A DNA stretch of 18,425 nucleotides from a virus. Shown here piece after piece: positions 1 to 16,764 of this stretch. Made by a program: the position numbers and the translations under genes. The notes under the pieces were generated by a model. That model worked only from the letters and a program-made list of their open reading frames with translations. It was not told where the DNA came from and made no database searches. The stretch lies in UHGV virus genome UHGV-2152132; one strand, given 5' to 3'. Every line of letters starts with the position of its first letter. Position 1 is the stretch's first letter.

Positions 1-897
1 CTATGACTTGCTGTTTTCAGTAAGAGTCTTATCATCCAAAGAATTTATTCTAGAAATTCTTTTTAACTCATTAAGATAATCAACCTCGTTTTCTAAGAAC
101 CAATGAAGAACTTTAGAATTGCCAAGTAATTTATTAATATATGACTGGATTATAACGAATTTCAACATATCTGAACCATACTCGGTTTGAAGCTTTTTCG
201 TTTCTTCCGAAGTTGTTGCCATTTCTTGTTCCAGACGAAGTATGGTTTTTTTTATGTCCTTTTTATAGGGAGTGTTTTTCCCTTTATTTACTATCATCGA
301 TGCCGGTGTTGCATCCAAGATGCTCATTGCAAATTTTTTACTATAATTATCAAAATTAATCATTGTACCGACTGCTTCAATTTGGCGAATTGGCTTCATT
401 TTCCTCAAAACGTCAAATGTAGCCTTAGGTATAGGTTTATCAGAAAGTTTCGCAATTACACTTGAATCTATGCCGTTCATCACATTCGCTTTATCTTTTA
501 TGGCATCAACAGATATGCCCAAAGCAGCACTAAGTTTTTCAATTGATACTTTTGCCAGAGACTTAATTATCATTCTATGTTCTTCAACTACATTTATATG
601 ATTCACTTGTTTGTTAGGAGTGAAAGCATCATCTATGCTCGAAAGTATACATGGAGCTTTTTCTATACCTAAGTCTTTTAAAGCCTCAACCCTTAAATGG
701 CCATCAAGTATCTTAGTGACATCTTTATCTTTGTCATAGAATACTATTATTGGTTCAATAATACCTAAGCTTTCGATAGAGGTAACTATTTGATGATATT
801 TATGGCTTCGCTTTACGTTTTCTAATAATTCCTTAGATGGAATTAACTTATTAGTTTCCAGGTAAATAAAATTATCGCCAAAACGTATCTGAATCAT
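1..897 (-). CDS. ParB/Srx N-terminal-domain protein (ParB-like 2), third gene of the recombinase operon
   Basis: 298-aa ORF with stop TAG at 1-3. Its ATG (895-897) overlaps the upstream stop as ATGA (894-897). The N-terminal segment IIEPIIVFYDKDKDVTKILDGHLRVEALKDLGIEKAPCILS fits the ParB/sulfiredoxin fold pattern (beta strand, DGHxR motif, helix). The remaining helical part resembles the HTH plus RepB-type C-terminal region of plasmid ParB/RepB proteins. Recognised by eye only. Confidence 0.65.
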   Translation of the reverse strand: MIQIRFGDNFIYLETNKLIPSKELLENVKRSHKYHQIVTSIESLGIIEPIIVFYDKDKDVTKILDGHLRVEALKDLGIEKAPCILSSIDDAFTPNKQVNHINVVEEHRMIIKSLAKVSIEKLSAALGISVDAIKDKANVMNGIDSSVIAKLSDKPIPKATFDVLRKMKPIRQIEAVGTMINFDNYSKKFAMSILDATPASMIVNKGKNTPYKKDIKKTILRLEQEMATTSEETKKLQTEYGSDMLKFVIIQSYINKLLGNSKVLHWFLENEVDYLNELKRISRINSLDDKTLTENSKS

Positions 898-1790
898 TTT
901 AATACCTCTTTGTTTACTGGGGTTAATATCTGAGATGGTAGTTCTGAAAGATTCTCTTGTTCAAGTATATGTTGAAAGCTTTTATTCATCATTATGATGT
1001 TAAAAATCTCATTTACTATTAGTAGGTTGGTTTTTATGAATTTTGAGTTGTTATAAACAGATTTATGTTCAGCGATACTATTTTCATAAAGCTCAATCAA
1101 CTCCTCTGCAGTCATCCTTTTTGATGGTTTGTGATAATAAAATCCGGCTGCTTTTGCACCTTTATTCCCAACTGTTCTTTGATTTAGAATGTGTTTTATC
1201 TTTATAATGTCCCGACTTTTTATTAATTTTTTATCATATGCTTCGGTAAGAATATCTTGTGCTTCCTCAGTTTCACATCTTGCAAATTGCACTGCGAGAT
1301 ACAGAGGCAAATTACCCCGTTCGACTGCTGAGAGAAGTTTATGCTCTCCCTTATCAAGTAGCATATTAATACTGCTCACCCAGTTCGATGAATATCCAGT
1401 AATCTCACTTATTTCGGAGTCTGAAAGTCCTCTGATTTTCATGTCTTTAATCACCTGTAATAACTCATTAGAACGTGGTCTTCTCCTTGCAATGTTTTCA
1501 ACTAAACTCATAACGTAAGCATCTTCTTCTGATACATCTCTTATAATTGCTGGAATAATAGTTTCACCTAATGCAACGAGAGCCTCTATTCTCCCTTGAC
1601 CACAAATTAAAGCATATTTGAAATCGCCTTCATCAATAGCTCTTACGCTTATAGGCTTGCTTAATCCTCTTTTTTTTATGCTTTCCTTTATTTCTTCATG
1701 CACTACCTTATTTCTTGTTCGTGGGTTAAGAAATTTTATTTTTGCAATCTCAATTTGAATTATTGGGAATTCATTTTTTTCAGGCAGCAT
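894..1790 (-). CDS. ParB/Srx N-terminal-domain protein (ParB-like 1), second gene of the recombinase operon
   Basis: 298-aa ORF. Its ATG (1788-1790) overlaps the recombinase 3' end by 11 nt (ATGCTGCCTGA). The segment LNPRTRNKVVHEEIKESIKKRGLSKPISVRAI...YALICGQGRIEALVALGETIIPAIIRDVSEEDAYVMSLVENIARR is a typical ParB N-domain (GxGR arginine-patch-like motif, then VEN..R) followed by an HTH-like segment (LSDSEISEITGYSSNWVSS). It has the same length as the downstream gene and looks like a paralogue. Confidence 0.72.
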   Translation of the reverse strand: MLPEKNEFPIIQIEIAKIKFLNPRTRNKVVHEEIKESIKKRGLSKPISVRAIDEGDFKYALICGQGRIEALVALGETIIPAIIRDVSEEDAYVMSLVENIARRRPRSNELLQVIKDMKIRGLSDSEISEITGYSSNWVSSINMLLDKGEHKLLSAVERGNLPLYLAVQFARCETEEAQDILTEAYDKKLIKSRDIIKIKHILNQRTVGNKGAKAAGFYYHKPSKRMTAEELIELYENSIAEHKSVYNNSKFIKTNLLIVNEIFNIIMMNKSFQHILEQENLSELPSQILTPVNKEVLK

Positions 1791-3336
1791 ATAGTTCCCT
1801 CACTTTCATGCGAGTAATAATTTGTAGAAGTTTATCAAGATTATCAAATCTATAGAGATCTAATCGAATGTTGTTTGTTTCCGTCATGCACATTTTATTA
1901 TATTCGTTTTCAATCTTTGGTATGATATAAAAATCAAGAGGTGAAATATTTTGTGAATTCATTCGTATAACAATTGTTATGTCTGCTTTCTGTGAGTTAT
2001 CAAACCGGACTTTCCATCTAAGTTTACCTGATTTCATATGTATGCATTTAGTAACAAGGACGGAAATTAAAAACTCATCATTGATGTAAAGCATTGGGGC
2101 ATATTTATACTCGTCTATATGACAGTTGCTTTTTAAAATTTCACCCTTAAAATCCTCAATTATCTCTGAGTAAAATGATCTTAGTGCTTCATTTATTTTG
2201 AGATAGCTGTAATCATGTTCTGGCTTATAACCAATCAAAGTATATGCTCTTAAAAGACCACCAAATCGGGTTCTATAAACAGAAGATGAAGGGCCTGTAT
2301 CATCTTCATCAATGATAAAGCCTGATAGTTTTCCATTAGATTCTAATTTTTGTTTTAGTTTTTCTAATAGATCTTCATTAGTCAAATGAATGGATCGGAG
2401 CTGAATTATTTCTTGAGCTTTATTGTATTTTTTCTTTGAAATAATAGGTTTATATGCCTTGTCACATCTAACCCATTCATGTTTGGGGTTTTTTACAAGC
2501 CTACTTTTTAATTTAGATGAGGTTTTGTTATATATGTTGTTTCCAATATATTTTTCATTTGTCAAAATTTGATGTATTTTTGCACGAGTCCATAATGTAC
2601 CATTTTCTGCAGGTATGTTCTGTTCATTTAATCTCTCAGCAATAATGAATTCTGGGACGTTATTATCTATAAAGAGATCATATATTCTATTTACAATTTT
2701 TATTTCATTTTTTGGTCCCGGAATTAATATTACCCTATCTGTTTGAATACTCTTTCTTTTGCGGAAACTCAATATTTCTTTAGCTATGCCATTTTCGTCT
2801 ACTAAAAGACGTCTCAGCCCATAACCAGCCATACCGCCTTGATGATAACCAAGCTTTATTAAATTTACTTGCCCTATAAATACCTTTTCAGATAGATTCC
2901 TGCTGTGATATGCAGCACTAGATCTTTTTATATTCAGTATAACAGAGGACTCTAAAGGGAAATCTTTAGTGGGTATAGGTTCGGAACAATATATAAGATC
3001 TACACCATTTCTCTCAAATAGAAAGGAATAATATGCCGCTTCATCACTATTTTGAAAACGACCAAAACGGCTCACATCATAAAATAATACAGCCTGTATA
3101 TCTATTTTCTTTTGTTCTACATCGCTAAGTAACTGCTGCAAAGAATGCCTGCCTACGATACTGACTCCGCTCTTACCTGAATCATCGTAGGTATAAGCGA
3201 TTTCCATATTGTTCTTTTCAGCATAATCTTTGATATATTCGGACTGATTATGTAAAGAATATTGCTGATGGTCGGTAGACATCCTCAAGTACTGCGCGAC
3301 CCTAACTCTATGATTTTTGTCATTTTCGCTAGCCAT
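1780..3336 (-). CDS. Large serine recombinase (resolvase/invertase catalytic domain plus recombinase domain, atypical C-terminus)
   Basis: 518-aa ORF. VAQYLRMSTDHQQYSLHNQ...DDSGKSG...LFYDVSRFGRF is the serine-recombinase catalytic domain, with the nucleophile Ser in RMST. The middle region (GYGLRRLL..., HEWVRCDKAYKPIISKKKYNKAQ) looks like the recombinase domain of large serine recombinases. I see no Cys4 zinc ribbon. The last ~130 aa are unassigned. GAGG (3345-3348, minus strand) lies 8 nt upstream of the ATG at 3336. Confidence 0.85.
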   Translation of the reverse strand: MASENDKNHRVRVAQYLRMSTDHQQYSLHNQSEYIKDYAEKNNMEIAYTYDDSGKSGVSIVGRHSLQQLLSDVEQKKIDIQAVLFYDVSRFGRFQNSDEAAYYSFLFERNGVDLIYCSEPIPTKDFPLESSVILNIKRSSAAYHSRNLSEKVFIGQVNLIKLGYHQGGMAGYGLRRLLVDENGIAKEILSFRKRKSIQTDRVILIPGPKNEIKIVNRIYDLFIDNNVPEFIIAERLNEQNIPAENGTLWTRAKIHQILTNEKYIGNNIYNKTSSKLKSRLVKNPKHEWVRCDKAYKPIISKKKYNKAQEIIQLRSIHLTNEDLLEKLKQKLESNGKLSGFIIDEDDTGPSSSVYRTRFGGLLRAYTLIGYKPEHDYSYLKINEALRSFYSEIIEDFKGEILKSNCHIDEYKYAPMLYINDEFLISVLVTKCIHMKSGKLRWKVRFDNSQKADITIVIRMNSQNISPLDFYIIPKIENEYNKMCMTETNNIRLDLYRFDNLDKLLQIITRMKVRELYAA

Positions 3337-3359
3337 GCACGAAACCTCATGGATGATTC

Positions 3360-3388
3360 AATACAATGTAGTGGATAAAATTGATCAA
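3360..3388 (-). promoter_or_regulatory. Candidate sigma70 promoter of the recombinase-ParB-ParB operon
   Basis: On the minus strand: TTGATC (3388-3383), 17-nt spacer, TGTATT (3365-3360). Each hexamer matches 4/6, and the predicted start is about 17 nt upstream of the ATG. AT-rich DNA gives many such matches, so this is weak. Confidence 0.25.
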
Positions 3389-3506
3389 ATTTTAACCGAA
3401 TTCAACTGTTTTATCATTGATTAGAGCGAATTTGGTAGATCTTCGAGGTGTATGATAATCGAGAAGAGATGTGAATTATTTAGCTGATATGACCGACAGC
3501 TTTCGT

Positions 3507-3556
3507 TATGTGGACTCAATGTCCCCATTTGTAAATGGCTATGCTTAGTCCACATA
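3507..3556. repeat. 50-bp dyad-symmetric site centred on GT (candidate serine-recombinase att/res site or operator)
   Basis: TATGTGGACT caatgtcc CCATTT GT AAATGG ctatgctt AGTCCACATA. There is a perfect 10-bp outer inverted repeat (3507-3516 / 3547-3556) and a perfect 6-bp inner inverted repeat (3525-3530 / 3533-3538) around the central GT at 3531-3532. It lies between the integrase stop and the recombinase start. No T-tract follows on either strand, so it is not a canonical terminator. Confidence 0.6.
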
Positions 3557-3618
3557 GGTTAATGGTGTGATTATTAATTCTTTAACTAAATCAAGATAGT
3601 TAATCCATCATGGGAGAG

Positions 3619-4848
3619 TTATGCGGCAATAACTTTGCATTTTTGAGACGAAACATAGTCACTCCACCATTGCATGAGAACCACCCGTTCAGTGAGATAC
3701 TCTGCACGATTGTAGGCTGCAATTATTTCATCTTTCTTCGAGTGGGCAAGGGCGGCTTCTAAGACATCAGTCCTAAACTTGCCAGACTCCTCAGCAGCCG
3801 TTCTAGCAATGGATCGCATACCGTGAGCTACAAGCTCACCTCCGAAACCCATACGGATTATGGCCGCATTAGCTGTTTGTTCATGCATGTGATTGAGTGG
3901 AGCTTTGATACTGGGGAACACCCACTCTCTATGCCCGCTGATGACTTTCATTAAATCCAAAACTCGCAAAGCTTCTTTGCTCAGTGGAACTTTGTGAGGC
4001 TTCTTCATTTTCATAAACTCCGCCGGGATGTTCCACATGCCAGTTTCAATATCAATATCTGACCATCTTGTGCGAACAGCTTCACCTGGGCGAACCCATG
4101 TGAGAAGTTGCCACTCAATCAGTAGCCTTGTTTCCAAACGGATAGAAGCATTGTTTAGAGCAACCAAGAAGCGAGGGAGTTCGGAAGGGGGTAATGCTGG
4201 CATATTCTGTTTTTTTGGCTTGCTGAACCGTTGCCCCAGGTTGTCTGCCGGGTTGAATTCTATGAGTTCTTCTGTTGCTGCATAGCGGAAAATTTCATTC
4301 AGGCGGGATATGATGCGGCGAAGTGTTTCAAGGACACCTCGTTTTTCTATGGGTTCTAAATGCTGTTTAAGCATTTTAGGGCGAATCTCCTTAATTGGGG
4401 TATCACCCAATGTGGAAAAGATATTTCTCTCTAGGCTTCGCCAGATGTCGTTAGCATGATCTTGGGAGATGCCTGACGTTTTGACTTTCTCATCAAGCCA
4501 CTTCTTGGCTACTGCTTGAAATGTATGTTCCGTGGCATCTTTCAGTGCATTGGCTTTTTGGTTGTTATGAACTTGGGGGTCTATACCATTTGTAAGCAAC
4601 GACAAGTATTCATCACGTAAAGCTCGTGCCTTCGCAAGTGTAAGGTGAGGATAGGTTCCTAAGCTCACCTTAGTTCGCTTTTTGGTCACAGGCACTGCAT
4701 ATCTGAAATACCAATTTTTCTTCCCTCCCTTCGCCAGGGGAGCGATTCGCAACAGCAAACCATCGCCGTCAAAAAGGTTAACCTCTTTTTCGGCAGGTTT
4801 GGTGCTTTTGATTTCAGTGTCAGTGAGCTTCTTAGCGATTTTGGCCAT
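3619..4848 (-). CDS. int: Tyrosine integrase, P4/CP4-57 (IntA/SlpA-like) family
   Basis: The ORF runs 3619-4929. I prefer the ATG at 4848 (MAKIAKKLTDTEIKSTKP...) because this family starts with the K-rich LTDxxIK N-terminus. Catalytic signature: WVRPGEA (R), HGMRSIARTAA (HxxR), AAYNRAEY (Y). It is adjacent to the ssrA 3' copy. Confidence 0.88.
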   Translation of the reverse strand: MAKIAKKLTDTEIKSTKPAEKEVNLFDGDGLLLRIAPLAKGGKKNWYFRYAVPVTKKRTKVSLGTYPHLTLAKARALRDEYLSLLTNGIDPQVHNNQKANALKDATEHTFQAVAKKWLDEKVKTSGISQDHANDIWRSLERNIFSTLGDTPIKEIRPKMLKQHLEPIEKRGVLETLRRIISRLNEIFRYAATEELIEFNPADNLGQRFSKPKKQNMPALPPSELPRFLVALNNASIRLETRLLIEWQLLTWVRPGEAVRTRWSDIDIETGMWNIPAEFMKMKKPHKVPLSKEALRVLDLMKVISGHREWVFPSIKAPLNHMHEQTANAAIIRMGFGGELVAHGMRSIARTAAEESGKFRTDVLEAALAHSKKDEIIAAYNRAEYLTERVVLMQWWSDYVSSQKCKVIAA

Positions 4849-4946
4849 GTTTGGGACCCTCGATTTTAGGACCCATCTTCGTGGGTCCCATTCAGGGTGC
4901 CATAACTCGTAGTTCTCAGCAATTCTCACTAGACTACAATAGACGT

Positions 4947-5144: not shown

Positions 5145-6404
5145 TTAACTCTCCGCCGCCAAATTGCCGCCATCAGGTAGATGCTCATGCTTCATCATTT
5201 GGTGGATAAGAACTTCTACTTTTCTGAAGGTCGTATTGTCATAGTACTCAACAAGTGATTCATCGAAATCCTCTATCCAACCTTTTGCTGGGCCATTTGT
5301 TTGATATCTGACGGCAGTTGGTGAGTGGAAGTTGGGAGTAGCCTTTAAAGTGCTAAACACAGCCCATGATACTGGGTTAGTCACTTTAAATATTCTCTTC
5401 AATTCAGGGCAGTACAACGTGTTTGGTACAGTTATTCGTTCCATTTTAGGGGGTAAGATTACATTAATACCGATGTCACTATCTTTTTGATTAAGTATTT
5501 TTGTCGAACGATACGATATTCCAGAAATATCCTTGTTGCTATCACTGCTAATCCATTGCATTAATAGGTTTGGAATAATGTATTCTTTGTGAAAATTTGC
5601 ATGTTCATGATCTTTTGTATAGTTACAGGCCAATACTAAAGGCCATGCGATTAGTTTTGAAACCTTATCATTAATCGGGTCTGAGAAATCACTATAATTT
5701 TCATTGTTGTATTCATCTATGCGTTCAGGCTCAAATGAAAATGAATGCTCACTTGGAGTGGAACGTAGTGCTGACGTTAGGTTGTATCCGAGGTCTAGTA
5801 TTCTAATTTGTGATGATTCGTCTTCAGTAATAAATGATGATATATACAGCTTATCGAAATCTGGTTTTCCCATCTCTTGCCAGCAAACAAATATTGATGT
5901 CCCAAGATATAGACATGGTAAACCTGAAACTGAGAAGCGTTGTGCGCTTACCAAATGTCTTTGACTAAAAGGAATGTGGAATAATTCTTCTCTATTTTTT
6001 AGTATGTTTTCACTTTTCCTAACCCGAAATAACGGAGTTCGTCTATTACAAAGTTTTGTTAACGGAACCGTCATTTGATAAATGTGGTTCTTCATTGCTG
6101 GTGAACCTATTATAGCTTGGTTGAAAGTATTATAGGCTTCTTTAATATTACCGTTAAGATAATGGGTTAACGTTTCAGATATTTTATTGGAGAATGTTGT
6201 GATTGAAATCGATCTTTTTTTTACCTCTTTTATTGTTTCGTTGTCTGGATAGTCCTTTCTTATTTTATCAATAGCTTCAAGATAACAATCAATCCTGTTT
6301 TTAAAGTTGGATACAATGTCGCCATTGGCCTTGAATGGGGGTTGAAGTAGTTCATATTGTAATAATGAATCTGATATTTCTTTCAGTTCTGAATATTTGC
6401 GCAT
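5145..6404 (-). CDS. RES-domain protein (419 aa), candidate NAD+-targeting toxin/abortive-infection effector; prophage cargo
   Basis: LFRVRKSE...ELFHIPFSQRHLVSAQRFSVSGLPCLYLGTSIFVCWQEMGKP matches the RES-domain core (Arg in xRFx, G.P.LYL, Glu). ISGISYRSTKILNQKDSDIGINVILPP supplies the conserved Ser and the following NxxxF/L strand. A ~130-aa helical N-terminal region and a ~90-aa C-terminal extension are unassigned. The ATG at 6404 is 10 nt after the int stop on the same strand. GC is lower than in the neighbouring phage genes (22/60 at 5221-5280). Confidence 0.62.
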   Translation of the reverse strand: MRKYSELKEISDSLLQYELLQPPFKANGDIVSNFKNRIDCYLEAIDKIRKDYPDNETIKEVKKRSISITTFSNKISETLTHYLNGNIKEAYNTFNQAIIGSPAMKNHIYQMTVPLTKLCNRRTPLFRVRKSENILKNREELFHIPFSQRHLVSAQRFSVSGLPCLYLGTSIFVCWQEMGKPDFDKLYISSFITEDESSQIRILDLGYNLTSALRSTPSEHSFSFEPERIDEYNNENYSDFSDPINDKVSKLIAWPLVLACNYTKDHEHANFHKEYIIPNLLMQWISSDSNKDISGISYRSTKILNQKDSDIGINVILPPKMERITVPNTLYCPELKRIFKVTNPVSWAVFSTLKATPNFHSPTAVRYQTNGPAKGWIEDFDESLVEYYDNTTFRKVEVLIHQMMKHEHLPDGGNLAAES

Positions 6405-6414
6405 GAGAATTATT

Positions 6415-7431
6415 TCAATTAAGGTTGATTAATGGATTCTTAGTCACAGCATCTTCGAGATGTTCTGGAGAAAAATGTGCATATATCATTGTCATTTTAA
6501 TATCAGTGTGACCCAAGATTTCTTTAAGTACCAGTATGTTTCCGCCGTTCATCATAAAGTGACTGGCGAATGTATGACGCAGAACGTGGGTACATTGACC
6601 TTCCGGCAGCTCAATACCGGCCCTCTTTACTGCTCGTTCAAAAGCTTTTCTGCATGGAGTGAATAATTTTCCTCTCTTTTTGGGGAGTTCGTCATACAGA
6701 TCCTGTGATATTGGCACTGTTCTGTTTTTCTTGCCCTTAGTCTTGGTGTAAGTGATGCGGTATTTTGACAACTGGTGTCCCTGTAGGTTTTCGGCTTCAC
6801 TCCATCGCGCGCCGGTGGCCAGGCAGATTTTTGTAATCAAAAGCAGGCTGGGGCTTTGAGAATCAGCGCAGGCATCCAGCAGACGTTTAATTTCTTCCGG
6901 GGTCAGGAACGCCAGTTCACCCTCAGCAATTTTAAATGTTGGCAGCCCGGCAAGTGGGTTGGGGGCTGACCAATGGCCCAGCTTTTTCAGTGTACCAAAT
7001 ACCGATGATAGGTTACGCTGTTCAAGGTTTACCGTGCGGGGCTTAACGGGCGACATAAGCGTGCCATCTTCATTTCGCACTTCACCTTTTAGCCGTGCTT
7101 CGCGGTATTTCGTAAAGTCACCGGCTGTCAGTTCTGAGGCGATGGGATCGCCTAGACCATTACAGATAATTTTAAGTTTCGCCATGAGGCGCTTGGGGTC
7201 TGCGAGTGTCTGACCGTACAGGGAATACCAAAGCTCAATTAATTCTGATAGGCGTCGCCGATCATCCTTTTCTCCTAACCACGGTTTTTTGTTCACTTCT
7301 TCCATTGTGAAGCTTTCAAACGCAATAGCTTCGCCTTTGGTAGCAAATTGCTTACGCACGCGCTTGCCATTGCGTCCATTGGGATAGCACTCACACAACC
7401 ATTTTCCGTTCGGCTGTTTTCTGATGGTCAT
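6415..7431 (-). CDS. int: Tyrosine integrase, P2/186 family
   Basis: 338 aa. MTIRKQPNGKWLCECYPNGRNGKRVRKQFATKGEA closely parallels my recollection of the 186 Int N-terminus. Catalytic motifs are ATGARWSEAE, HVLRHTFASHFMMNGGNILVLKEILGH and MTMIYAHF. Its ATG lies 1 nt after the cI stop. Confidence 0.92.
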   Translation of the reverse strand: MTIRKQPNGKWLCECYPNGRNGKRVRKQFATKGEAIAFESFTMEEVNKKPWLGEKDDRRRLSELIELWYSLYGQTLADPKRLMAKLKIICNGLGDPIASELTAGDFTKYREARLKGEVRNEDGTLMSPVKPRTVNLEQRNLSSVFGTLKKLGHWSAPNPLAGLPTFKIAEGELAFLTPEEIKRLLDACADSQSPSLLLITKICLATGARWSEAENLQGHQLSKYRITYTKTKGKKNRTVPISQDLYDELPKKRGKLFTPCRKAFERAVKRAGIELPEGQCTHVLRHTFASHFMMNGGNILVLKEILGHTDIKMTMIYAHFSPEHLEDAVTKNPLINLN

Positions 7432-7432
7432 T

Positions 7433-8065
7433 TCAAAGGCTCTTAATGATTTTCAGTGCGCGGCCTACTACCTCAATGTCATCCAGGCCGCACTCAAACG
7501 ATGAATCATCCTGATGCACTACTAATTTGTTTCCCGGGAGTCGAGTCAATTTAACGATGCTTTTTATCCCGTCGATATCGACTAACCACATACCATTTAC
7601 TGGTGGTGTTTGGTTGCGATCTATTAAATAAGAATCACCAGAAGTAGTCACCAGCAGTAGGTTGCTTGAGTCTGAGGGGAGTATGCTGCTATCAATGATT
7701 GCTTTTCCAGCATCGACCAATAAACCACCGTTGAGAGTCGCCTTGTCAATTTCAGGAGATACTAGTTCAGAAAGAGGTACAACCTTGCTGGAGTTCACGG
7801 AATTGATATTTTTTTTAGGTTCAATGTTTGGACCTGGCTCCCCCTGTCCGGTGGTTAGCCACAGTAAAGAAACTCCTGTTTCCAAGGCGCACTGAATCAC
7901 CCACTCTGCAGGAAAACTATCTCTTAAGTATCTGTTTGCCATGGTGCTTTTTGATGCGCCTAAGTGATCGCAAAGTTGCTGTCTGGACTTGAAATCATAG
8001 GCTGCCATTAGTCTATGGATAGCCTCTCTTCCCCCTGTATTCTCTCCAACCTTTACCTGTATCAT
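7433..8065 (-). CDS. cI: Immunity repressor, 186 CI-like
   Basis: 210 aa. The N-terminal HTH region (QQLCDHLGASKSTMANRYLR...CALETGVSLLWLTTGQGEP) resembles 186 CI as I recall it. It sits upstream of int and divergent from apl. AGGA lies 8-9 nt upstream of the ATG at 8065. Confidence 0.8.
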   Translation of the reverse strand: MIQVKVGENTGGREAIHRLMAAYDFKSRQQLCDHLGASKSTMANRYLRDSFPAEWVIQCALETGVSLLWLTTGQGEPGPNIEPKKNINSVNSSKVVPLSELVSPEIDKATLNGGLLVDAGKAIIDSSILPSDSSNLLLVTTSGDSYLIDRNQTPPVNGMWLVDIDGIKSIVKLTRLPGNKLVVHQDDSSFECGLDDIEVVGRALKIIKSL

Positions 8066-8077
8066 TTTTTAATCCTG

Positions 8078-8106
8078 TTGACGTATCAAATATTGGATCG
8101 TAGTAT
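8078..8106 (+). promoter_or_regulatory. pR-like early lytic promoter (drives apl-cII)
   Basis: TTGACG (8078-8083), exactly 17 nt of spacer, TAGTAT (8101-8106). One copy of the 17-bp repeat fills the spacer and the second copy sits at the predicted start site. Confidence 0.55.
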
Positions 8107-8129
8107 CTCGATGTATCAAATATTGAATC
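8083..8129. promoter_or_regulatory. Two 17-bp direct repeats GTATCAAATATTGRATC, 30 bp apart (candidate CI operators)
   Basis: Copy 1 is at 8083-8099 (GTATCAAATATTGGATC) and copy 2 at 8113-8129 (GTATCAAATATTGAATC), matching 16/17. Each contains a short dyad TCAA-N3-TTGR. They overlap the pR-like promoter. Confidence 0.5.
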
Positions 8130-8131
8130 AA
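8102..8131 (-). promoter_or_regulatory. Possible pL-like lysogenic promoter, face-to-face with pR
   Basis: On the minus strand: TTGATT (8131-8126), 18-nt spacer, GATACT (8107-8102), each 4/6. It would give transcripts convergent and overlapping with pR, as known for P2 Pe/Pc and 186 pR/pL. This call is weak. Confidence 0.3.
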
Positions 8132-8132
8132 G

Positions 8133-8160
8133 TAAAACGAGATAAAACGACGTAAACCAA
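8133..8160 (+). promoter_or_regulatory. Three 10-bp-phased direct repeats TAAAACGA / TAAAACGA / TAAACCAA (candidate Apl/Cox boxes)
   Basis: Copies at 8133-8140, 8143-8150 and 8153-8160, between the pR start and the apl RBS. They resemble the P2 Cox-box style TTAAAGNCA, which is arranged as helically phased direct repeats. Confidence 0.4.
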
Positions 8161-8184
8161 ACCTTAATCGGGAGATACTGCACT

Positions 8185-8427
8185 ATGAGCACTGATATTT
8201 CAATTCGTGTACCAAAAGAGATGGCTACGCCTGCAGAGTTCGCGGAATGGGAAGGTATCTCCCGCGGCTCCGTGTATCAAAAAATTCACCATGGTCAGCT
8301 TGCTAAATACATGGTCAAGAAAGAAAAAAACAAAGGCCGCGTAAGCCTGCGTTATTTAATGTACAAAACCGATCAGGTCCGTGAATCCCTCGGTCATTCC
8401 AACTTCCGCGTCATTGTTGGTAAGTAA
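8185..8427 (+). CDS. apl: Apl/Cox-like excisionase and transcriptional regulator
   Basis: 80 aa. It is the first gene of the rightward operon, divergent from cI. The C-terminal ESLGHSNFRVIVGK resembles the 186 Apl C-terminus (LGHSRFQLVIGA as I recall). GGGAG lies 9 nt upstream of the ATG. Confidence 0.7.
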   Translation: MSTDISIRVPKEMATPAEFAEWEGISRGSVYQKIHHGQLAKYMVKKEKNKGRVSLRYLMYKTDQVRESLGHSNFRVIVGK

Positions 8428-8459
8428 GTTCAATTATGAGAACTTTCTAAGGGGGTAGC

Positions 8460-8855
8460 ATGTTTGATTATAAGATTTCCAAACACCCGCATTTTGATGA
8501 AGCCTGTAGAGCTTTTGCACTTCGTCACAATATGGCGAAGCTGGCAGAACGTGCAGGAATGAATGTCCAGACTCTGCGAAACAAACTCAACCCAGATCAA
8601 CCGCATCAGCTCAATGCGCCAGATATCTGGCTACTTACCGATCTGACGGAAGATTCAACGCTGGTAGACGGTTTTCTGGCACAGATTCACTGCCTGCCAT
8701 GTGTACCGATTAATGAGGTGGCAAAAGAGAAACTGCCACATTACGTCATGAGTGCAACCGCAGAGATCGGGCGTGTTGCTGCAGGTGCGGTATCCGTTCC
8801 GACGTTCCTCGTTGCCGCTTCTCCCAAACCAACGTTTAAGAAAATGCAGAGGTAA
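8460..8855 (+). pseudogene. cII: cII (186-type) truncated at about codon 112 and fused to foreign sequence
   Basis: Residues 1-112 (MFDYKISKHPHFDEACRAFALRHNMAKLAERAGMNVQTLRNKLNP...GAVS) track 186 CII as I recall it (169 aa). The remaining 19 aa (VPTFLVAASPKPTFKKMQR) read through antisense tail-fibre sequence and the invertase crossover site. Confidence 0.7.
8819..8844. promoter_or_regulatory. Hin/Gin/Cin/Pin-type 26-bp crossover site (invertase-proximal, orphan)
   Basis: TTCTCCCAAACC AA CGTTTAAGAAAA compares with hixL TTCTTGAAAACC AA GGTTTTTGATAA. There are two imperfect inverted 12-bp half-sites around an AA core, 55 bp upstream of the invertase ATG. No second inverted copy was found in the window. 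Confidence 0.7.
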
Positions 8856-8899
8856 CAGCTAACTGGCATCATCTCCGGTTTTTATTCAGGGGGATGATC

Positions 8900-9466
8900 A
8901 TGCTTATTGGCTATGTACGCGTGTCAACAAATGACCAGAACACCGATTTGCAACGTAATGCACTGAACTGCGCGGGATGTGAGCAGATTTTTGAGGACAA
9001 AATCAGTGGCACTAAGTCCGACAGACCGGGGCTGAAAAAACTACTCAGGACACTATCGGCAGGAGACACGCTGGTTGTCTGGAAGCTGGACAGGTTGGGG
9101 CGCAGTATGCGGCATCTTGTTACGCTGATAGAAGAGTTGCGCCAGCGTGGTGTGAATTTCAGAAGCCTGACTGACAGTATTGATACCAGTACCCCAATGG
9201 GCCGTTTCTTTTTTCATGTCATGGGTGCCCTGGCTGAAATGGAACGCGAACTGATAGTTGAACGTACCAGGGCAGGGCTGGCTGCAGCTCGTGCCAAAGG
9301 CAGAGTAGGTGGACGCCGTCCTAAGTTGACCACCGAACAGTGGGCACAGATTGGGCGTTTACTCGAGGCCGGAGAATCAAGACAGCGTATTGCACTGATT
9401 TTTGATGTAGGCGTTTCTACCATTTATAGAAAATTTCCGGCAAATAAGATCAATGAATCCCCCTGA
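8900..9466 (+). CDS. Site-specific DNA invertase, Hin/Gin/Cin/Pin family (small serine recombinase)
   Basis: MLIGYVRVSTNDQNTDLQRNAL...DTLVVWKLDRLGRS...MGRFFFHVMGALAEMERELIVERT...GVSTIYRKFP is near-collinear with Pin/Hin. I prefer the start at 8900 (family N-terminus, GGGGG 6-7 nt upstream). The track ORF starts at 8894. Confidence 0.92.
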   Translation: MLIGYVRVSTNDQNTDLQRNALNCAGCEQIFEDKISGTKSDRPGLKKLLRTLSAGDTLVVWKLDRLGRSMRHLVTLIEELRQRGVNFRSLTDSIDTSTPMGRFFFHVMGALAEMERELIVERTRAGLAAARAKGRVGGRRPKLTTEQWAQIGRLLEAGESRQRIALIFDVGVSTIYRKFPANKINESP

Positions 9467-9514
9467 ATCAGCATTATGTTGATTATCCCTGCAAGCAGAC
9501 AAATACCGTTATTT

Positions 9515-9572
9515 TGTGTGAATAACGACACAACTGCGCTTAGCTGTTTGTCAGGCACAATCACTTCAACAT
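9515..9572 (+). promoter_or_regulatory. PF-like Ogr-dependent late promoter
   Basis: TGT-N12-ACA dyad at 9515-9532 (TGTgtgaataacgacACA), the activator-binding element of P2-family late promoters, which is centred near -55. A candidate -10 CAACAT at 9567-9572 puts the start about 55 bp from the dyad centre and about 30 nt upstream of the FI ATG. Confidence 0.5.
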
Positions 9573-9608
9573 AGGGCGAAGCCTAATCCAATCAGGAGGT
9601 TCGCCACT

Positions 9609-10781
9609 ATGGCTCAGGATTACCACCACGGGGTGCGCGTTGTTGAAGTCAACGAAGGCACCCGATCTATTACCACGGTGAGCACCGCCATCGTGGGTAT
9701 GGTCTGCACGGGCGATGATGCCGATGCAAAAATGTTTCCTCTTAATAAACCCGTGCTGATCACTGATGTGCTGACTGCCAGCGGTAAAGCGGGTGAGTCA
9801 GGTACTCTGGCCCGTTCGCTGGATGCCATCGCTGACCAGGCAAAACCCGTGACCATTGTTGTGCGTGTGCCGCAGGGTGAAACGGAAGACGAAACCACGA
9901 CCAATATCATCGGCGCAGTGACTGCTGAAGGTAAAAAAACAGGTATGAAAGCCCTGTTATCTGCCCAGTCACAGCTCGGCGTTAAACCGCGCATTCTCGG
10001 CGTGCCAGGCCACGACACCAAGGCGGTAGCTACTGAGTTGCTGAGCGTGGCGCAAAGCCTGCGTGGATTTGCTTACCTGTCAGCGTATGGCTGCAAGACA
10101 GTGCAGGAGGCGATCACTTACCGCGAAAACTTCAGCCAGCGCGAAGGGATGCTGATCTGGCCTGACTTTACTGGCTGGGACACGGTGCTGAATGCCGAAG
10201 CAACGGCATATGCCACCGCCCGTGCGCTTGGTCTGCGCGCCAAAATTGACGAGCAGACCGGATGGCACAAAAGCCTGTCCAACGTGGGCGTGAACGGTGT
10301 CACCGGAATTTCTGCAGATGTGTTCTGGGATCTGCAGGACCCGGCAACCGATGCAGGTCTGCTGAACCAGAACGACGTCACCACGCTTGTGCGTAAAGAC
10401 GGTTTCCGCTTCTGGGGTTCCCGCTGCCTGAGTGATGACCCGCTCTTTGCCTTCGAAAACTACACCCGCACGGCGCAGGTGCTGATGGACACGATGGCAG
10501 AAGCACACATGTGGGCGGTGGATAAACCGCTTAACCCGTCGCTGGCCCGCGACATTATCGAAGGTATCCGCGCCAAAATGCGCAGCCTGGTCAGTCAGGG
10601 CTATCTCATTGGTGGTGATTGCTGGCTGGATGAGTCGGTGAACGACAAAGACACGCTGAAAGCCGGAAAACTCACCATCGACTACGACTACACGCCAGTG
10701 CCGCCACTTGAAAACCTGATGCTGCGTCAGCGCATCACCGATCAGTACCTGGTGAATTTCGCCAGCCAGGTCAGCGCGTAA
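9609..10781 (+). CDS. FI: Contractile tail sheath protein (P2 gpFI)
   Basis: 390 aa. [54 protein letters not shown] matches the P2 FI N-terminus as recalled. AGGAGG RBS. Confidence 0.93.
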
Positions 10782-10790
10782 GGGGACAAC

Positions 10791-11306
10791 ATGGCTTTAC
10801 CACGCAAATTAAAACACCTGAACCTGTTTAACGACGGGAACAACTGGCAGGGGATCGTTGAATCGCTGACGCTGCCGAAATTTACCCGCAAATATGAGAA
10901 GTATCGCGGCGGCGGAATGCCGGGTGCGGTGGATGTGGATCTGGGGCTTGATGACAGTGCGCTGGACACAGAATTTTCCATTGGTGGTACTGAATTGCTG
11001 CTGTTTAAACAGATGGGTAAAGCCACGGTGGATGGCATCCAGCTGCGCTTTACCGGCTCTATTCAGCGTGACGATACCGGGGAAGTGCAGGCCGTGGAGC
11101 TTGTCGTGCGTGGACGTCACAAAGAAGTGGATTCCGGCGAGTGGAAGACGGGCGAAAGCAACACCACCAAAGTGACCAGTACCAACAGCTACGCGAAGCT
11201 GACCATCAATGGTGAGGTGCTCTATGAAGTGGACCTTATCAACATGGTGGAAATTGTGGACGGTGTGGACCTGATGGAAGCGCACCGCAACGCCCTCGGC
11301 CTCTGA
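10791..11306 (+). CDS. FII: Tail tube protein (P2 gpFII)
   Basis: 171 aa. MALPRKLKHLNLFNDG...LPKFTRKYEKYRGGGMPGAVDVDLGLDD parallels P2 FII. AAGGGG RBS. Confidence 0.92.
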   Translation: MALPRKLKHLNLFNDGNNWQGIVESLTLPKFTRKYEKYRGGGMPGAVDVDLGLDDSALDTEFSIGGTELLLFKQMGKATVDGIQLRFTGSIQRDDTGEVQAVELVVRGRHKEVDSGEWKTGESNTTKVTSTNSYAKLTINGEVLYEVDLINMVEIVDGVDLMEAHRNALGL

Positions 11307-11360
11307 TATATCTGAACGGCGCGGGATACCGCGCCAGAACCCAATTGACAGGACAGCAAA

Positions 11361-11663
11361 ATGAGCGATAAGCAGACTGAAAAGACCATTCAACTGGATA
11401 CCCCCATCAAGCGCGGTAAAACAGAAATCACCGAAATTGTGCTGCGTAAACCGCAGTCCGGTGCGCTGCGCGGTACACGCCTGCAGGCCATTATGGATAT
11501 GGATGTAAACGCGATGATGACCGTGATCCCCCGCATCTCCAGTCCGGCACTGACTGCACAGGAAATTGCAGAGATGGACCCGGCAGATCTCACTGCCATG
11601 TCGGTTGAGGTTGTCACTTTTTTGTTGAAGAAGTCGGTGCTTGCCGGTTTACCGACAGCCTGA
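11361..11663 (+). CDS. E: Tail assembly chaperone gpE (zero-frame product)
   Basis: 100 aa, positioned between FII and T. Contains the conserved slippery T TTT TTG. Confidence 0.85.
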   Translation: MSDKQTEKTIQLDTPIKRGKTEITEIVLRKPQSGALRGTRLQAIMDMDVNAMMTVIPRISSPALTAQEIAEMDPADLTAMSVEVVTFLLKKSVLAGLPTA

Positions 11664-11797
11664 CGGTTGACGATCTGGTGGCAGATATCGCCACCATTTT
11701 TCACTGGCCGCCATCCGTTACTGACGTTATGCCGCTGACCGAAGTGCTGGAATGGCGGTATAAAGCGATTCAGAGAAGCGGGGCCAACGATGAGTGA
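11361..11797 (+). CDS. E+E': Tail assembly chaperone gpE+E' (programmed -1 frameshift product)
   Basis: A -1 slip at 11618-11624 continues as VEEVGACRFTDSLTVDDLVADIATIFHWPPSVTDVMPLTEVLEWRYKAIQRSGANDE, ending at TGA 11795-11797. ADIATIFHWPP...RSG matches the P2 E' tail as recalled. The total is about 145 aa. Confidence 0.8.
11618..11624 (+). other. Slippery heptamer T TTT TTG for the E/E+E' -1 frameshift
   Basis: I checked the frame by hand. 11618 is the third position of codon T86, then TTT (F87) and TTG (L88). The -1 frame stays open for 57 codons. Confidence 0.8.
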
Positions 11798-14700
11798 TAA
11801 CAACCTGCGTCTGCAGGTCATTCTTAATGCGGTTGACAAGCTCACCCGCCCATTTCGATCTGCGCAGGCCAGTTCAAGAGAACTGGCTGCTGCTGTCAAA
11901 AAATCCCGCGATGCAATAAAGCAGCTTGATCAGGCCGGGAGCAGTCTGGACAGCTTCCGAAAGCTGCAGGCAGAAAATCAGAAATTAGGCGACAGGCTGA
12001 ACTATGCCCGCCAGCGTGCAAATTTGCTCAGTCAGGAACTGGGAGCGATGGGGCCGCCTTCGCAACGTCAGGTTGTTGCTCTGGGCCGTCAACGGCTGGC
12101 TGTTCAGCGCCTGGAAGAACGCCAGAAAAAGCTGCAGCAGCAGACGGCGCTTGTGCGTGCTGAACTGTACCGGGCGGGAATTTCTGCGAAAGACGATGCG
12201 GGAGCAACTGCCCGTTTAGCCCGTGAAACATCACGTTATAACCAGGAACTTTCGAAACAGGAGGCGCGGCTGAAGCGACTGGGGGAAGCTCAGCGCAGGA
12301 TGAATGCAGCGCGTGCCAGTTATGCCCGTTCGCTGGAGGTGCGTGATCGTATTGCAGGTGCCGGAGCCACCACCACGGCTGCAGGGCTGGCAATGGGTGC
12401 GCCAGTGATGGCGGCAGTAAAAAGCTATACCAGCATGGAAGATGCCATGAAAGGTGTGGCAAAGCAGGTCAATGGTCTGCGTGACGATAATGGCAACCGC
12501 ACTGCACGTTTTTATGAAATGCAGGATGCCATCAAGGCTGCCAGCGAACAGTTGCCGATGGAAAACGGTGCGGTGGACTTCGCTGCACTGGTTGAAGGTG
12601 GTGCGCGCATGAACGTCGCAAACCCTGACGACAGCTGGGAAGATCAGAAACGTGACCTGCTGGCCTTCGCCAGTACGGCAGCAAAGGCGGCAACAGCCTT
12701 TGAGCTGCCAGCGGATGAACTGTCAGAAAGTCTGGGGAAAATCGCCCAGCTCTACAAAATCCCCACCCGCAATATTGAACAGCTCGGTGATGCGCTGAAC
12801 TATCTGGATGATAACGCCATGTCGAAAGGGGCAGACATCATTGATGTGATGCAACGTCTGGGCGGTGTGGCTGACCGTCTGGATTATCGTAAAGCGGCGG
12901 CGCTGGGTTCCACCTTCCTGACACTGGGCGCTGCGCCAGAGGTTGCAGCCAGTGCAGCAAACGCGATGGTGCGTGAATTGTCCATTGCCACCATGCAAAG
13001 CAAGAGTTTCTTTGAAGGGATGAATCTGCTGAAACTCAATCCTGAAGTGATTGAAAAGCAGATGACGAAGGATGCGATGGGAACCATCCAGCGCGTGCTG
13101 GAGAAGGTAAACGCGCTGCCGCAGGACAAGCGCCTGTCTGCCATGACTATGTTGTTTGGTAAAGAGTTTGGCGATGACGCGGCGAAACTGGCAAACAACC
13201 TGCCGGAACTGCAGCGTCAGTTAAAACTGACAGCGGGCAATGATGCGCTTGGCTCCATGCAAAAAGAATCCGACATTAACAAGGATTCACTTTCTGCGCA
13301 GTGGTTGCTGGTCAAAACCGGAGCGCAGAACACCTTCAGCAGCCTGGGCGAAACGCTGCGCCAGCCGCTGATGGATATTCTGTACACGGTGAAAAGCGTC
13401 ACGGGGGCGTTGCGTCGCTGGGTGGAAGCTAACCCGGAACTGACAGGCACACTGATGAAAGCATCGGCTGTTGTGGCTGCGGTTACCGTCGGCCTCGGCA
13501 CCTTAGCGGTGGCGCTGGCTGCAGTGCTGGGGCCGCTGGCAGTGATCCGTCTGGGATTCTCTGTGTTGGGTATCAAAACGTTATCTTCCGTTACGGCAGC
13601 AGTAACTCGAACCAGCAGCGCGTTGTCCTGGCTGGCTGGCGCACCACTGGCACTGCTGCGACGCGGGCTTGCTTCATCGGGCAACGCCGCAGGTTTACTT
13701 ACTGCGCCGTTGTCGTCTTTGCGCCGCACGGCATCACTGACGGGAAATGTCCTGAAAACTGTAGCAGGTGCGCCGGTTGCACTTTTGCGGTCTGGATTAT
13801 CCGGTTTACGTGCTGTTGCTGTGATGTTTATGAATCCTCTGGCGGTACTGCGCGGTGGACTGGCCGCCGCAGGCACGGTGCTGCGAGTACTGGCATCTGG
13901 TCCACTGGCGATGCTGCGCGTTGCCCTGTATGCCATATCTGGTCTGTTAGGTGCTCTGCTCAGTCCGATAGGTCTTGTGGTTACTGCACTGGCGGGCGTG
14001 GCGCTGGTTGTCTGGAAATACTGGCAACCCATCACCGCATTTCTCGGTGGCGTGGTGGAAGGATTCAAAGCGGCGGCAGGTCCCATCAGTGCAGCGTTCG
14101 AACCGCTTAAGCCCGTGTTCCAGTGGATTGGCGACAAAGTGCAGGCGCTGTGGGGCTGGTTTACTGATCTGCTGACGCCCGTTAAGTCGACCTCTGCCGA
14201 ACTGCAGAGCGCAGCGGCAATGGGGCGGCGATTCGGGGAGGCACTGGCGGAAGGGCTGAATATGGTCATGCATCCGCTGGACTCCCTGAAATCCGGCGTT
14301 TCCTGGTTGCTGGAGAAGCTCGGCATTGTCAGTAAAGAGGCCGCAAAGGCAAAACTGCCGGAAAGCGTGACGCGTCAGCAACCTGCGACGGTGAATGCAG
14401 ACGGTAAAGTGATGATGCCATCGGGTGGTTTTCCATCATGGGGATATGGCTTTGCGGGGATGTATGACAGCGGCGGGTATATCCCGCGCGGGCAGTTTGG
14501 CATCGTCGGTGAAAACGGGCCGGAAATTGTTAACGGCCCGGCAAATGTGACCAGCCGGAGAAATACAGCTGCACTGGCTGCCGTTGTTGCCGGAATGATG
14601 GGCGTTGCTGCCGCGCCAGCAGAGCTTCCACCGTTGCACCCCTTGGCACTTCCCGCGAAAGGTGGAGAAGCAATTGTGAGTCGCGCAGCCACTGTGCCAC

Positions 14701-16740: not shown

Positions 16741-16764
16741 AACCTGCTACGGCAGGTTTTTATT
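16741..16764 (+). terminator. Rho-independent terminator after ogr, overlapping the stop of the convergent gene
   Basis: AACCTGC tacg GCAGGTT followed by TTTTATT. The 7-bp stem is at 16741-16747 / 16752-16758. Confidence 0.6.

Follow-up and report, generated by a model that had tools for sequence, protein, structure and literature searches.

The stretch of DNA studied here, 18,425 nucleotides (nt) of the virus genome UHGV-2152132 that are called the window below, starts with three genes on its minus strand. They encode a serine recombinase (REC) and two proteins of the ParB type (ParB-A and ParB-B), and are together referred to as the trio. The genes and features at this end of the window are the following:

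1780..3336, minus strand: REC, a serine recombinase of 518 amino acids (aa)
894..1790, minus strand: ParB-A, 298 aa, a ParB with a canonical N-domain, a helix-turn-helix (HTH) and a RepB-type C-terminal region
1..897, minus strand: ParB-B, 298 aa, a divergent ParB/RepB paralogue with a DGHxR motif and without the ENxxR segment
3337..3618, minus strand: an AT-rich spacer of 282 bp, 5′ of REC, presumed to contain the promoter or operator
3619..4929, minus strand: the P4-type tyrosine integrase of the ssrA island (Pfam Arm-DNA-bind_3, Phage_int_M and Phage_integrase)

An earlier reading of the window from its letters alone (the sequence-only reading) had described the three genes as chained by overlapping codons, which is borne out by the sequence. 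The stretch ATGCTGCCTGA at 1790-1780 holds an overlap of 11 nt between the ATG of ParB-A (1790-1788) and the TGA of REC (1782-1780), and ATGA at 897-894 is a 4-nt overlap between the ATG of ParB-B (897-895) and the TGA of ParB-A (896-894). The AT-richness that had been pointed out is found as well: 18 of the bases 1-60 are G or C, and the G+C content is 0.328 over positions 1-3336, compared to 0.461 in the tyrosine integrase gene and 0.50 in the remaining window. The presence of a block of 33% G+C in a genome of approximately 50% indicates import. A ParA-like gene is absent from the window. In the spacer at 3337-3618, a promoter scan gave scores no higher than those of shuffled sequence, and no open reading frame (ORF) resembles the divergent HTH gene that accompanies most non-enterobacterial copies of the trio (see below). 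The spacer does contain a perfect 9-bp inverted repeat, spotted by eye and without statistics, with ATGTGGACT at 3547-3555 and AGTCCACAT at 3508-3516 separated by a gap of 30 nt. It lies at the edge of the AT-rich block, just 3′ of the stop codon of the tyrosine integrase, and could be a terminator or a binding site.

Judged from its sequence, REC keeps the catalytic residues of serine recombinases intact. Pfam identifies a Resolvase domain at residues 14-152 (9e-22), in agreement with the catalytic domain assigned earlier, and a Recombinase domain (PF07508) at residues 210-312 (6e-22). The protein contains the motif YLRMSTDHQ, and Y16, R18, S20 (the nucleophile), Q24, D87, R90 and R93 are invariant in an alignment of 41 sequences. 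REC falls into the integrase family phrog_95 (6e-69). In the full-length AF2 model (pLDDT 87), residues ~1-325 were matched by Foldseek to the SprA, Bxb1 and PhiC31 integrases (E = 1e-15). Beyond this part, the architecture of REC differs from that of a textbook large serine recombinase. The sequence-only reading was right that a zinc ribbon is lacking, as there is no Pfam match for one and no conserved Cys cluster in the alignments. The unassigned C-terminus of approximately 130 aa that it described is in fact about 200 aa long (residues 313-518) and is predicted to adopt a PD-(D/E)xK-like fold. In a separate model of residues 312-518 (pLDDT 89), a helical bundle is followed by a beta domain. 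When this model was compared to known folds, the best score was obtained for the homing endonuclease I-Ssp6803I (9.2), followed by MepB (7.5), Hjc Holliday-junction resolvases (7.3, 7.1 and 6.7), the N-terminal domains of NhoI and Eco15I (7.0), RecU (6.8) and PvuII (6.0). An independent Foldseek search also ranked I-Ssp6803I on top (E = 9.5e-5), before a SPARDA filament chain (prob. 0.90) and PvuII. The modelled domain has the core alpha-beta-beta-beta-alpha-beta arrangement of the PD-(D/E)xK superfamily. Conservation is at least 90% for P451-D452, with which one strand begins, and for D468 in the strand that follows, E421 is conserved in closer relatives, and the position of the canonical Lys is taken by a Tyr (Y470); these residues were assigned to strands by eye, without a structural alignment. 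According to the model, the C-terminus of REC thus has a restriction-endonuclease/Hjc-like fold, which replaces the zinc-ribbon/coiled-coil module and may either cut DNA or only bind it.

The two ParB proteins are alike in length, and profile searches uphold the assignment of ParB domains to both. ParB-A matches Pfam ParB_N (1.6e-13) and RepB (8.5e-8) as well as TIGR00180 (1.6e-16), and its residues 8-189 align to Spo0J (1vz0, E = 2.5e-12). Across the N-domain and HTH, the protein aligns with Spo0J, Noc, PadC and KorB. The motif GERR is represented by GQGR and ENLQR by ENIAR, and both are conserved in 64 orthologues. ParB-B is the stronger RepB match of the two (Pfam RepB 6e-24, ParB_N 1e-5). 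Its conserved motifs are LLDGHxR, DDExfTYN and iQEHxMI, while the ENxxR segment is absent. Both belong to PHROG families of unknown function, ParB-A to phrog_3951 (5e-82) and ParB-B to phrog_31451 (3e-206). The sequence-only reading had called them paralogues of equal length with the motifs ICGQGRIEA (ParB-A) and LDGHLRVEA (ParB-B). Lengths and motifs are correct, and the paralogy is only remote: in BLASTP, 30% identity extends over 63 aa (E = 1e-3), and it takes a profile-profile comparison (hhalign) to align 247 columns with 96.7% probability (E = 3e-10). As far as the motifs tell, ParB-A keeps the CTP (cytidine triphosphate)-pocket motifs and the HTH and ParB-B is degenerate.

The trio is conserved far beyond the window. 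A recombinase search in 1.84 billion cluster representatives yielded 1351 recombinases at E < 1e-30, which align over their full length, including the C-terminus, at 35-47% identity. Two matched proteins of 1057 aa (P0121 and P0122) resemble head-to-tail fusions of two REC-family recombinases, with two matched stretches each. By scanning one genome per species with the alignment of 41 recombinases, 80 loci were collected from Alpha-, Beta- and Gammaproteobacteria, Acidobacteria, Phycisphaerales (Planctomycetes), Kofleriaceae, Bacteriovoracaceae and one metagenome-assembled genome of the Clostridia. REC, ParB-A and ParB-B follow each other in that order, on one strand and with similar sizes, in 67 of these loci; nine of the remaining 13 are incomplete because the contig ends there, and four are degraded. 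The grouping of the three genes as a unit, as proposed from the window, therefore holds. In the 67 complete loci the orthologues of ParB-A (E = 1e-45 to 1e-61) and ParB-B (1e-41 to 1e-64) are each approximately 295-310 aa long. Because the two proteins form separate orthologous groups, their duplication must be old. Likewise, the coupling of their genes is not due to chance, as the 4-bp overlap recurs in 45 of the 67 complete loci.

No ORF with a ParA-type Walker A motif (KGGxxK[ST]) is present within 7 kb of the trio at any of the 80 loci, so that the lack of a partition ATPase noticed in the window is general. The sole other recurrent gene is a divergent ORF of approximately 130 aa, located about 85 bp 5′ of REC in 39 loci. 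It is characterised by the N-terminus MxFPKKGKxFP and the HTH-like motif W(T/S)G(A/V)xERTxKNW, and matches no Pfam family above threshold. This gene is absent in E. coli. Apart from it, no conserved partner gene of the trio was found among the 80 loci. The 3′ neighbours are mixed and rich in mobile-element and defence genes, including those for ParB-methyltransferases, HmaA-, DrmD- and DruE-like helicases, DUF499 proteins, HipA and transposases. A small circular element or plasmid was considered as the carrier and rejected, as short contigs with the trio have no terminal overlap. In RefSeq, the genes of the trio go under names such as 'recombinase family protein', 'ParB/RepB/Spo0J family partition protein' and 'plasmid partitioning protein RepB C-terminal domain'. 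Full-text literature searches, among others for a serine recombinase with ParB, for the RefSeq accessions, for the RepB C-terminal name and for P4 hot spots, did not bring up any account of the trio.

Within the species, E. coli B (REL606, BL21 and derivatives) and E. coli C carry the 3.6-kb block with 100% identity. The trio is present in 655-660 of 5426 complete E. coli genomes (approximately 12%), as a single chromosomal copy in every one, and PLSDB contains no near-identical copy of it. REL606 and E. coli C share the order smpB, ssrA, P4-type integrase, REC, ParB-A, ParB-B, IS1, glaH, and the carrier island is sometimes reduced to the integrase, the trio and IS1. In other strains the trio is followed by different genes. 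In F070 a type I restriction-modification (R-M) system comes after it. In the strains E200086 and I2, the features that come next are a 3′ integrase fragment, TIGR04141 with HxsABCD, and a MOB relaxase; the copy in I2 is 95% identical and lies within the argW island array, adjoining AAA+RloB. The HxsABCD genes (His-Xaa-Ser radical-SAM system) with TIGR04141 beside the trio span L003:6478-11501 in I2, with the AAA+RloB pair close by, and L005:6932-14504 in E200086. A direct repeat of 292 nt with 76% identity brackets the trio in the latter locus (L005:14637-14928 and 18595-18886) and also in L003. It corresponds to the 3′ end of the integrase gene on either side of the trio, which suggests tandem islands followed by a deletion. 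Tandem island arrays at ssrA and argW have the trio at their ends, and it is intact in chromosomal islands even beside a decayed integrase.

The connection with the integrase is tight in this species. When the 5′ end of REC and the integrase were used as one probe, at least 80% of it was covered by a single match in 602 E. coli genomes. REC and the integrase are both annotated in every full-probe match listed (at least 89.9% identity); the integrase that comes closest, among the matches listed, without having REC in the matched stretch shows 88% identity, with homology from window position 3634 onwards. In E. coli the trio consistently accompanies one P4-type integrase allele at ssrA among the matches listed, so the trio is not independent of the tyrosine integrase there, a point that the sequence-only reading had not seen. 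In other lineages this integrase is outside the unit, and an integrase of the E. coli type adjoins only about 4 of 80 other loci. On the other side of the trio, homology among the E. coli islands compared ends approximately 51 bp past the ParB-B stop codon, just beyond a small hairpin. The operon thus ends at the window edge and does not continue past position 1, as had been thought possible.

Relatives of REC are also found on 66 large plasmids in PLSDB (43-47% identity among the matches listed), including pAt of A. fabrum C58. The large plasmids with a trio are mostly from Rhizobiaceae, Burkholderiaceae and Sphingomonadaceae. On pAtC58, the order is AbiEi/AbiEii, a divergent hypothetical gene, REC, two 'RepB C-terminal domain' genes and Fic. 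Genes for replication or partition are absent within 8 kb of the trio. The pAt plasmid of A. tumefaciens Sta005 carries a four-gene block of 3904 bp that is 96.9% identical to that of C58, located between a different Fic gene and sugar-utilisation genes. Homology between the two plasmids breaks sharply at the borders of the block, and the flanks are unrelated. A related site of approximately 35 bp (GCCTTGA-N6-TYGAACC followed by GTTGGCCC) is present at all four junctions, i.e., between AbiE and the trio and between the trio and Fic in C58, and between Fic and the trio and between the trio and the sugar genes in Sta005. Its form at the junctions is GCCTTGA-N6-T(Y)GAACC, then (G)TTyGGCCC. Relatives without the trio have one copy of the site, 3′ of AbiE or 5′ of Fic. 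Two copies occur in 17.5 kb of C58, compared to 0.17 expected, and about 30 bp of the site occur once or twice in 182 Rhizobiaceae plasmids, always in intergenic DNA; the example on pSymA is 34 nt 3′ of a LysR gene. Copies were located at L086:7495-7514 and 11377-11396, L088:7885-7904, L089:5897-5916, L090:4000-4019 and L091:6001-6032.

In the pAt plasmids of Agrobacterium, the site marks where accessory modules such as AbiE, Fic and the trio border on each other, and it looks like a recombination site common to several small modules. With only two junction sites in 17.5 kb of pAtC58, an integron-like array was rejected. The site was also rejected as a tRNA, transfer-messenger RNA (tmRNA) or known RNA, both ARAGORN and Rfam being negative.

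In 39 of the 80 loci, mostly from Alphaproteobacteria, the trio is followed by a structured element of approximately 105 nt, which runs from GGGGACCCGGACCC to GGAGCCCACCA. It begins 2-74 nt past the ParB-B stop codon, on the same strand, and scores 62-125 bits with a covariance model built here. Examples are L024:4731-4836, L065:10369-10474 and L040:9380-9485, besides 36 further loci. The one exception in position is L076, where an insertion with a DDE transposase gene and a 521-aa ORF (10383-13967) has come between the 3′ end of ParB-B, on the one hand, and its C-terminal fragment and the element, on the other; the distant copy is explained by this insertion sequence. The element consists of three hairpins. 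When 32 sequences were compared, pairing was kept in 98.2% of cells, and changes on both sides were seen in 7 pairs (37 cells), values that none of 500 shuffles reach, and in shifted registers only 24-43% of cells pair. The G-U pairs fit the sense strand only. A fourth hairpin with a covarying stem comes after the element. It has no Rfam match at the gathering score or at E <= 10 and ARAGORN finds no tRNA or tmRNA, which led to the rejection of these identities and of a known RNA.

The element also occurs apart from the trio. It is present in 39 IMG/VR contigs, about 25 of which have a trio directly 5′. In at least five contigs a solo motif (L095:3790-3891, L109:2109-2210, and on the minus strand L097:4250-4350, L116:6741-6843 and L120:4444-4545) is located between host-like genes and convergent tail genes resembling those of phages or gene transfer agents (GTAs). 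In other contigs, the same tail genes come after the trio and the element. The element is conserved from precisely its first base onwards. In Alphaproteobacteria, the trio adjoins this base, which elsewhere borders host DNA. One could imagine an attP site between ParB-B and the element, with the loci without a trio as integrated prophage ends. This idea was rejected, because contiguous trio-RNA loci are found inside megabase chromosomal contigs. The 3′ hairpin of the element resembles the Agrobacterium junction site, and no partial copies of the element were found at the left ends of the cassettes. In one locus (L009:10615-15282), a 1162-aa protein resembling a PLD-nuclease/helicase, its PLD-nuclease motif read by eye, and a 291-aa protein are encoded between two direct copies of the element, immediately 3′ of the trio. 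The element could act as an RNA partner or as a target of recombination, or be a terminator common to convergent operons.

The unit formed by these genes is conserved, discrete and single-copy, and the same cassette is found in different flanks. In full, it contains the divergent HTH-like regulator that E. coli lacks, REC, ParB-A and ParB-B, with the RNA of approximately 105 nt in Alphaproteobacteria. The regulator gene and the RNA, which belong to other lineages, were out of sight for the sequence-only reading. The trio is most likely the core of an autonomous, horizontally mobile cassette of about 3.7-3.9 kb that resides at the borders of islands, prophages and large plasmids. The reading that we tentatively prefer goes one step further and holds that this cassette is self-contained and site-specifically mobile, with the ParB pair controlling recombination. 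From the sequence-only reading, which had raised three possibilities, the nested serine-recombinase element with ParB accessory factors fits best, given a 3.9-kb cassette in different flanks.

What has been described is an anatomy, from which we infer each step of the mechanism. REC would cut and rejoin DNA at specific sites of approximately 35 bp, resulting in insertion, excision or exchange of the cassette. Its PD-(D/E)xK-like domain may serve as the module for site recognition or synapsis control, instead of a zinc ribbon and coiled coil. The closest fold to this domain is that of a homing endonuclease that reads a long specific site, which counts for a mobile cassette. The coupled ParB-A and ParB-B might form a mixed, CTP-switched complex bound on cassette DNA. 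This complex would license or block recombination, as a directionality or accessory factor, and could, jointly with the HTH protein, act as a repressor of the operon. The E. coli cassette would have become fixed beside one P4-type integrase at ssrA and would now travel with that island. A wider proposal, which is decidedly unlikely, sees in the trio a new recombination machine: a recombinase with a built-in endonuclease-like domain for DNA recognition, licensed by a heteromeric CTP-switch clamp of ParB proteins, with the Alphaproteobacterial RNA as cofactor or folded recognition site, that inserts or exchanges cassettes at borders; or else the same chemistry employed as an immune effector.

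A number of observations weigh against a site-specifically mobile cassette. First, the E. coli trio is never apart from the tyrosine integrase among the matches listed, and there is one copy per carrying genome, which argues against active transposition; a proliferating transposon was rejected on this ground. Secondly, the E. coli cassette has no flanking repeat above shuffled controls, local alignment across loci gave no flanking direct repeats above such controls, and the end repeat in Agrobacterium is not significant by itself (34 compared to a shuffled maximum of 33). Neither a circular junction nor a target duplication was found, and, for the cassettes of C58 and Sta005, a clean empty site or a pair of occupied sites could not be found in PLSDB. 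Thirdly, the junction site also borders AbiE and Fic modules and occurs in plain intergenic DNA (pSymA), and may be a general hot spot instead of the attachment (att) site of REC. Lastly, neighbours rich in defence genes suit a role in defence equally well.

Such a role in defence against phages or plasmids, or in competition between elements, is possible, if somewhat unlikely. The ParB pair would load on or sense foreign DNA that enters or replicates, and REC would cut or scramble it by means of its serine-recombinase active site and/or the PD-(D/E)xK-like domain. This fits the neighbourhoods and domain types and has no direct support. The E. coli islands contain type I R-M, HxsABCD with TIGR04141, and AAA+RloB, pAtC58 has AbiE and Fic, and elsewhere HmaA-, DrmD- and DruE-like helicases and ParB-methyltransferases lie downstream. 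ParB and PD-(D/E)xK domains are common in conflict systems. Moreover, the trio is a self-contained module without a fixed partner, its ORFs stay intact in chromosomal islands despite decay of the neighbouring integrase, and in the window it lies beside a P4-type integrase and a P2-like prophage, positions at which defence cargo reportedly clusters. However, guilt by association is weak here, since defence genes and mobile-element modules alike accumulate at the borders of islands and prophages. PADLOC-DB 2.0 has no match for REC and ParB-A, and ParB-B matches a type II methyltransferase model via its ParB domain only; the statement in the sequence-only reading that this is not a named system thus stands. 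To our knowledge, no defence system has a serine recombinase as effector. The nuclease-like domain does not have the canonical Lys (Y470), and E. coli B and C, which carry the trio, are classically phage-permissive. In favour of this role, a 2023 survey of E. coli defence islands reports defence-carrying islands with integrase/recombinase genes only, which it leaves unexplained; the trio island was not analysed there (PMC10121019).

An unlikely alternative is that the trio stabilises its carrier, with REC resolving multimers or tandem arrays and the ParB pair tethering, compacting or silencing DNA in the manner of KorB or Noc, without a ParA of its own. The near-canonical ParB/Noc/KorB type of ParB-A, the C-terminal regions of the RepB family, the 66 large plasmids and the position at the ends of tandem arrays at ssrA and argW are in line with this. 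Serine resolvases beside partition genes are a classical stability arrangement, as in Sin, the beta recombinase and the RK2 par region. Nevertheless, REC is of the large-integrase type and not a small resolvase, and a ParA is lacking within 7 kb in all 80 loci. The carrier in E. coli is a non-replicating chromosomal island that may hold nothing except the integrase, the trio and IS1, and the pAtC58 copy lies among accessory genes, at least 8 kb away from replication and partition genes. In addition, the cassette moves independently of any single carrier.

It is improbable that the trio is an integration-lysogeny module of a phage or GTA-like element, with REC as the phage integrase and the copies in E. 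coli and on plasmids as remnants. Membership of REC in phrog_95 and of both ParB proteins in PHROG families would suit this, as would the 170 relatives of REC in IMG/VR, many of which lie where a provirus ends. A distance of no more than 3 kb from a provirus end applies to about 45 of 80 viral-contig matches, the provirus boundaries in IMG/VR being predictions, and IMG/VR contigs contain about 25 more copies of the trio; both observations also count for the mobile cassette. The trio and the RNA element also converge on tail genes that border the element in contigs without a trio. The same tail-gene regions thus occur with and without the trio, which means that the phage-like element does not need it. 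Moreover, no phage genes are attached to the cassette in most of the 80 loci and in all E. coli and C58 copies, and REC is devoid of the zinc-ribbon/coiled-coil module by which the large serine integrases of phages exert control at attP and attB.

Lastly, an ordinary plasmid partition locus of the ParABS or repABC type that was captured in the chromosome, as the RefSeq annotations, the Pfam RepB matches and the apparent ParB N-domain, CTP-pocket motifs and HTH of ParB-A would have it, is effectively refuted by the lack of ParA at every locus, the constant coupling to a recombinase, the chromosomal location in E. coli without a near-identical copy in PLSDB, the neighbours of the homologues (no parA at 80 loci, AbiE and Fic instead of replication functions on pAtC58) and NCBIfam scores far under the cut-offs for repABC RepB (35.6 compared to 201.5 bits) and other equivalogs for both proteins.

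Further along, the window contains a deleted P2/186-like prophage (6415-16446), in tandem with the trio island at ssrA, which here separates ssrA from the P4-type integrase. The features are the following:

5145-6404, minus strand: an AT-rich gene of 419 aa without Pfam or PADLOC match, in phrog_7835 (function not known), between the integrases of the ssrA island and the P2/186-like prophage, a typical spot for prophage cargo or defence genes
6415-7431: P2/186-like integrase
7433-8065: CI repressor of the P2/186-like prophage
8894-9466: small serine invertase of the Hin/Pin type
9609-16446: prophage tail gene block, sheath to gpD, the ORFs being read as such without a domain scan
16760-17242, minus strand: an ORF of 160 aa between the prophage end and ssrA
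17366-17728: tmRNA gene ssrA

The trio is present in BL21, REL606 and E. coli C and conserved across phyla, and the papers searched describe no function for it. We regard it as a serine-recombinase element whose domain and accessory set have no precedent. Should it be a mobile cassette, it would represent an architecture of serine recombinases without zinc-ribbon/coiled-coil control, in which ParB-type switches are the likely accessory factors, and would bear on the shuffling of islands and defence loci and on recombinase engineering. If it is a system for defence or competition, a serine recombinase would be employed in such a system for the first time. In both cases a widespread annotation is corrected, as the 'partition protein' genes described here are not partition loci. 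Besides, an RNA motif with covariation support is added that is absent from Rfam. For the biology of ParB and CTP, the trio offers a natural case without ParA and with two paralogues, in laboratory strains.

Compared to known systems, REC shares its catalytic domain, long alpha-E helix and recombinase domain with the large serine recombinases SprA, Bxb1, PhiC31, TP901-1 and CcrB, with a fold match of approximately 325 residues. It differs from them in having a helical bundle and a PD-(D/E)xK-like domain instead of a zinc ribbon and coiled coil. In addition, its gene always precedes two ParB genes. The likeness of this domain to I-Ssp6803I, Hjc/RecU and type II restriction enzymes is one of predicted fold only: there is no sequence similarity, the Lys is replaced by Tyr, and the domain is fused to a recombinase.

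ParB-A aligns with the CTP-dependent ParB clamps (Spo0J/ParB, Noc, KorB and PadC) via its N-domain and HTH, and appears to keep GxxR and ENxxR. Unlike these clamps, the ParB proteins of the trio have no ParA, are two paralogues of which ParB-B is degenerate, have C-termini of the RepB type and are translationally coupled to a recombinase. Both ParB proteins share the Pfam RepB (PF07506) region with RepB of repABC plasmids. Nevertheless, both score far below the equivalog thresholds, and the trio has no repA or repC and is not located at a replication origin.

An analogy to the control of a recombinase by co-encoded proteins is offered by XisF of Anabaena, a large serine recombinase licensed by the two small proteins XisH and XisI. 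These are unrelated to ParB, and the XisF element has a developmental role, unlike the trio. Finally, in Tn4451 and Tn5397 a large serine recombinase (TnpX and TndX, respectively) moves a discrete element whose ends resemble its targets. The trio differs from the TnpX system in being single-copy, in its ParB partners and in the C-terminal region of the recombinase, the sequence relation being limited to the catalytic domain (2mhc, 2.8e-7). The ends of the Agrobacterium cassette resemble solitary sites in the same way as the ends of these transposons resemble their targets.

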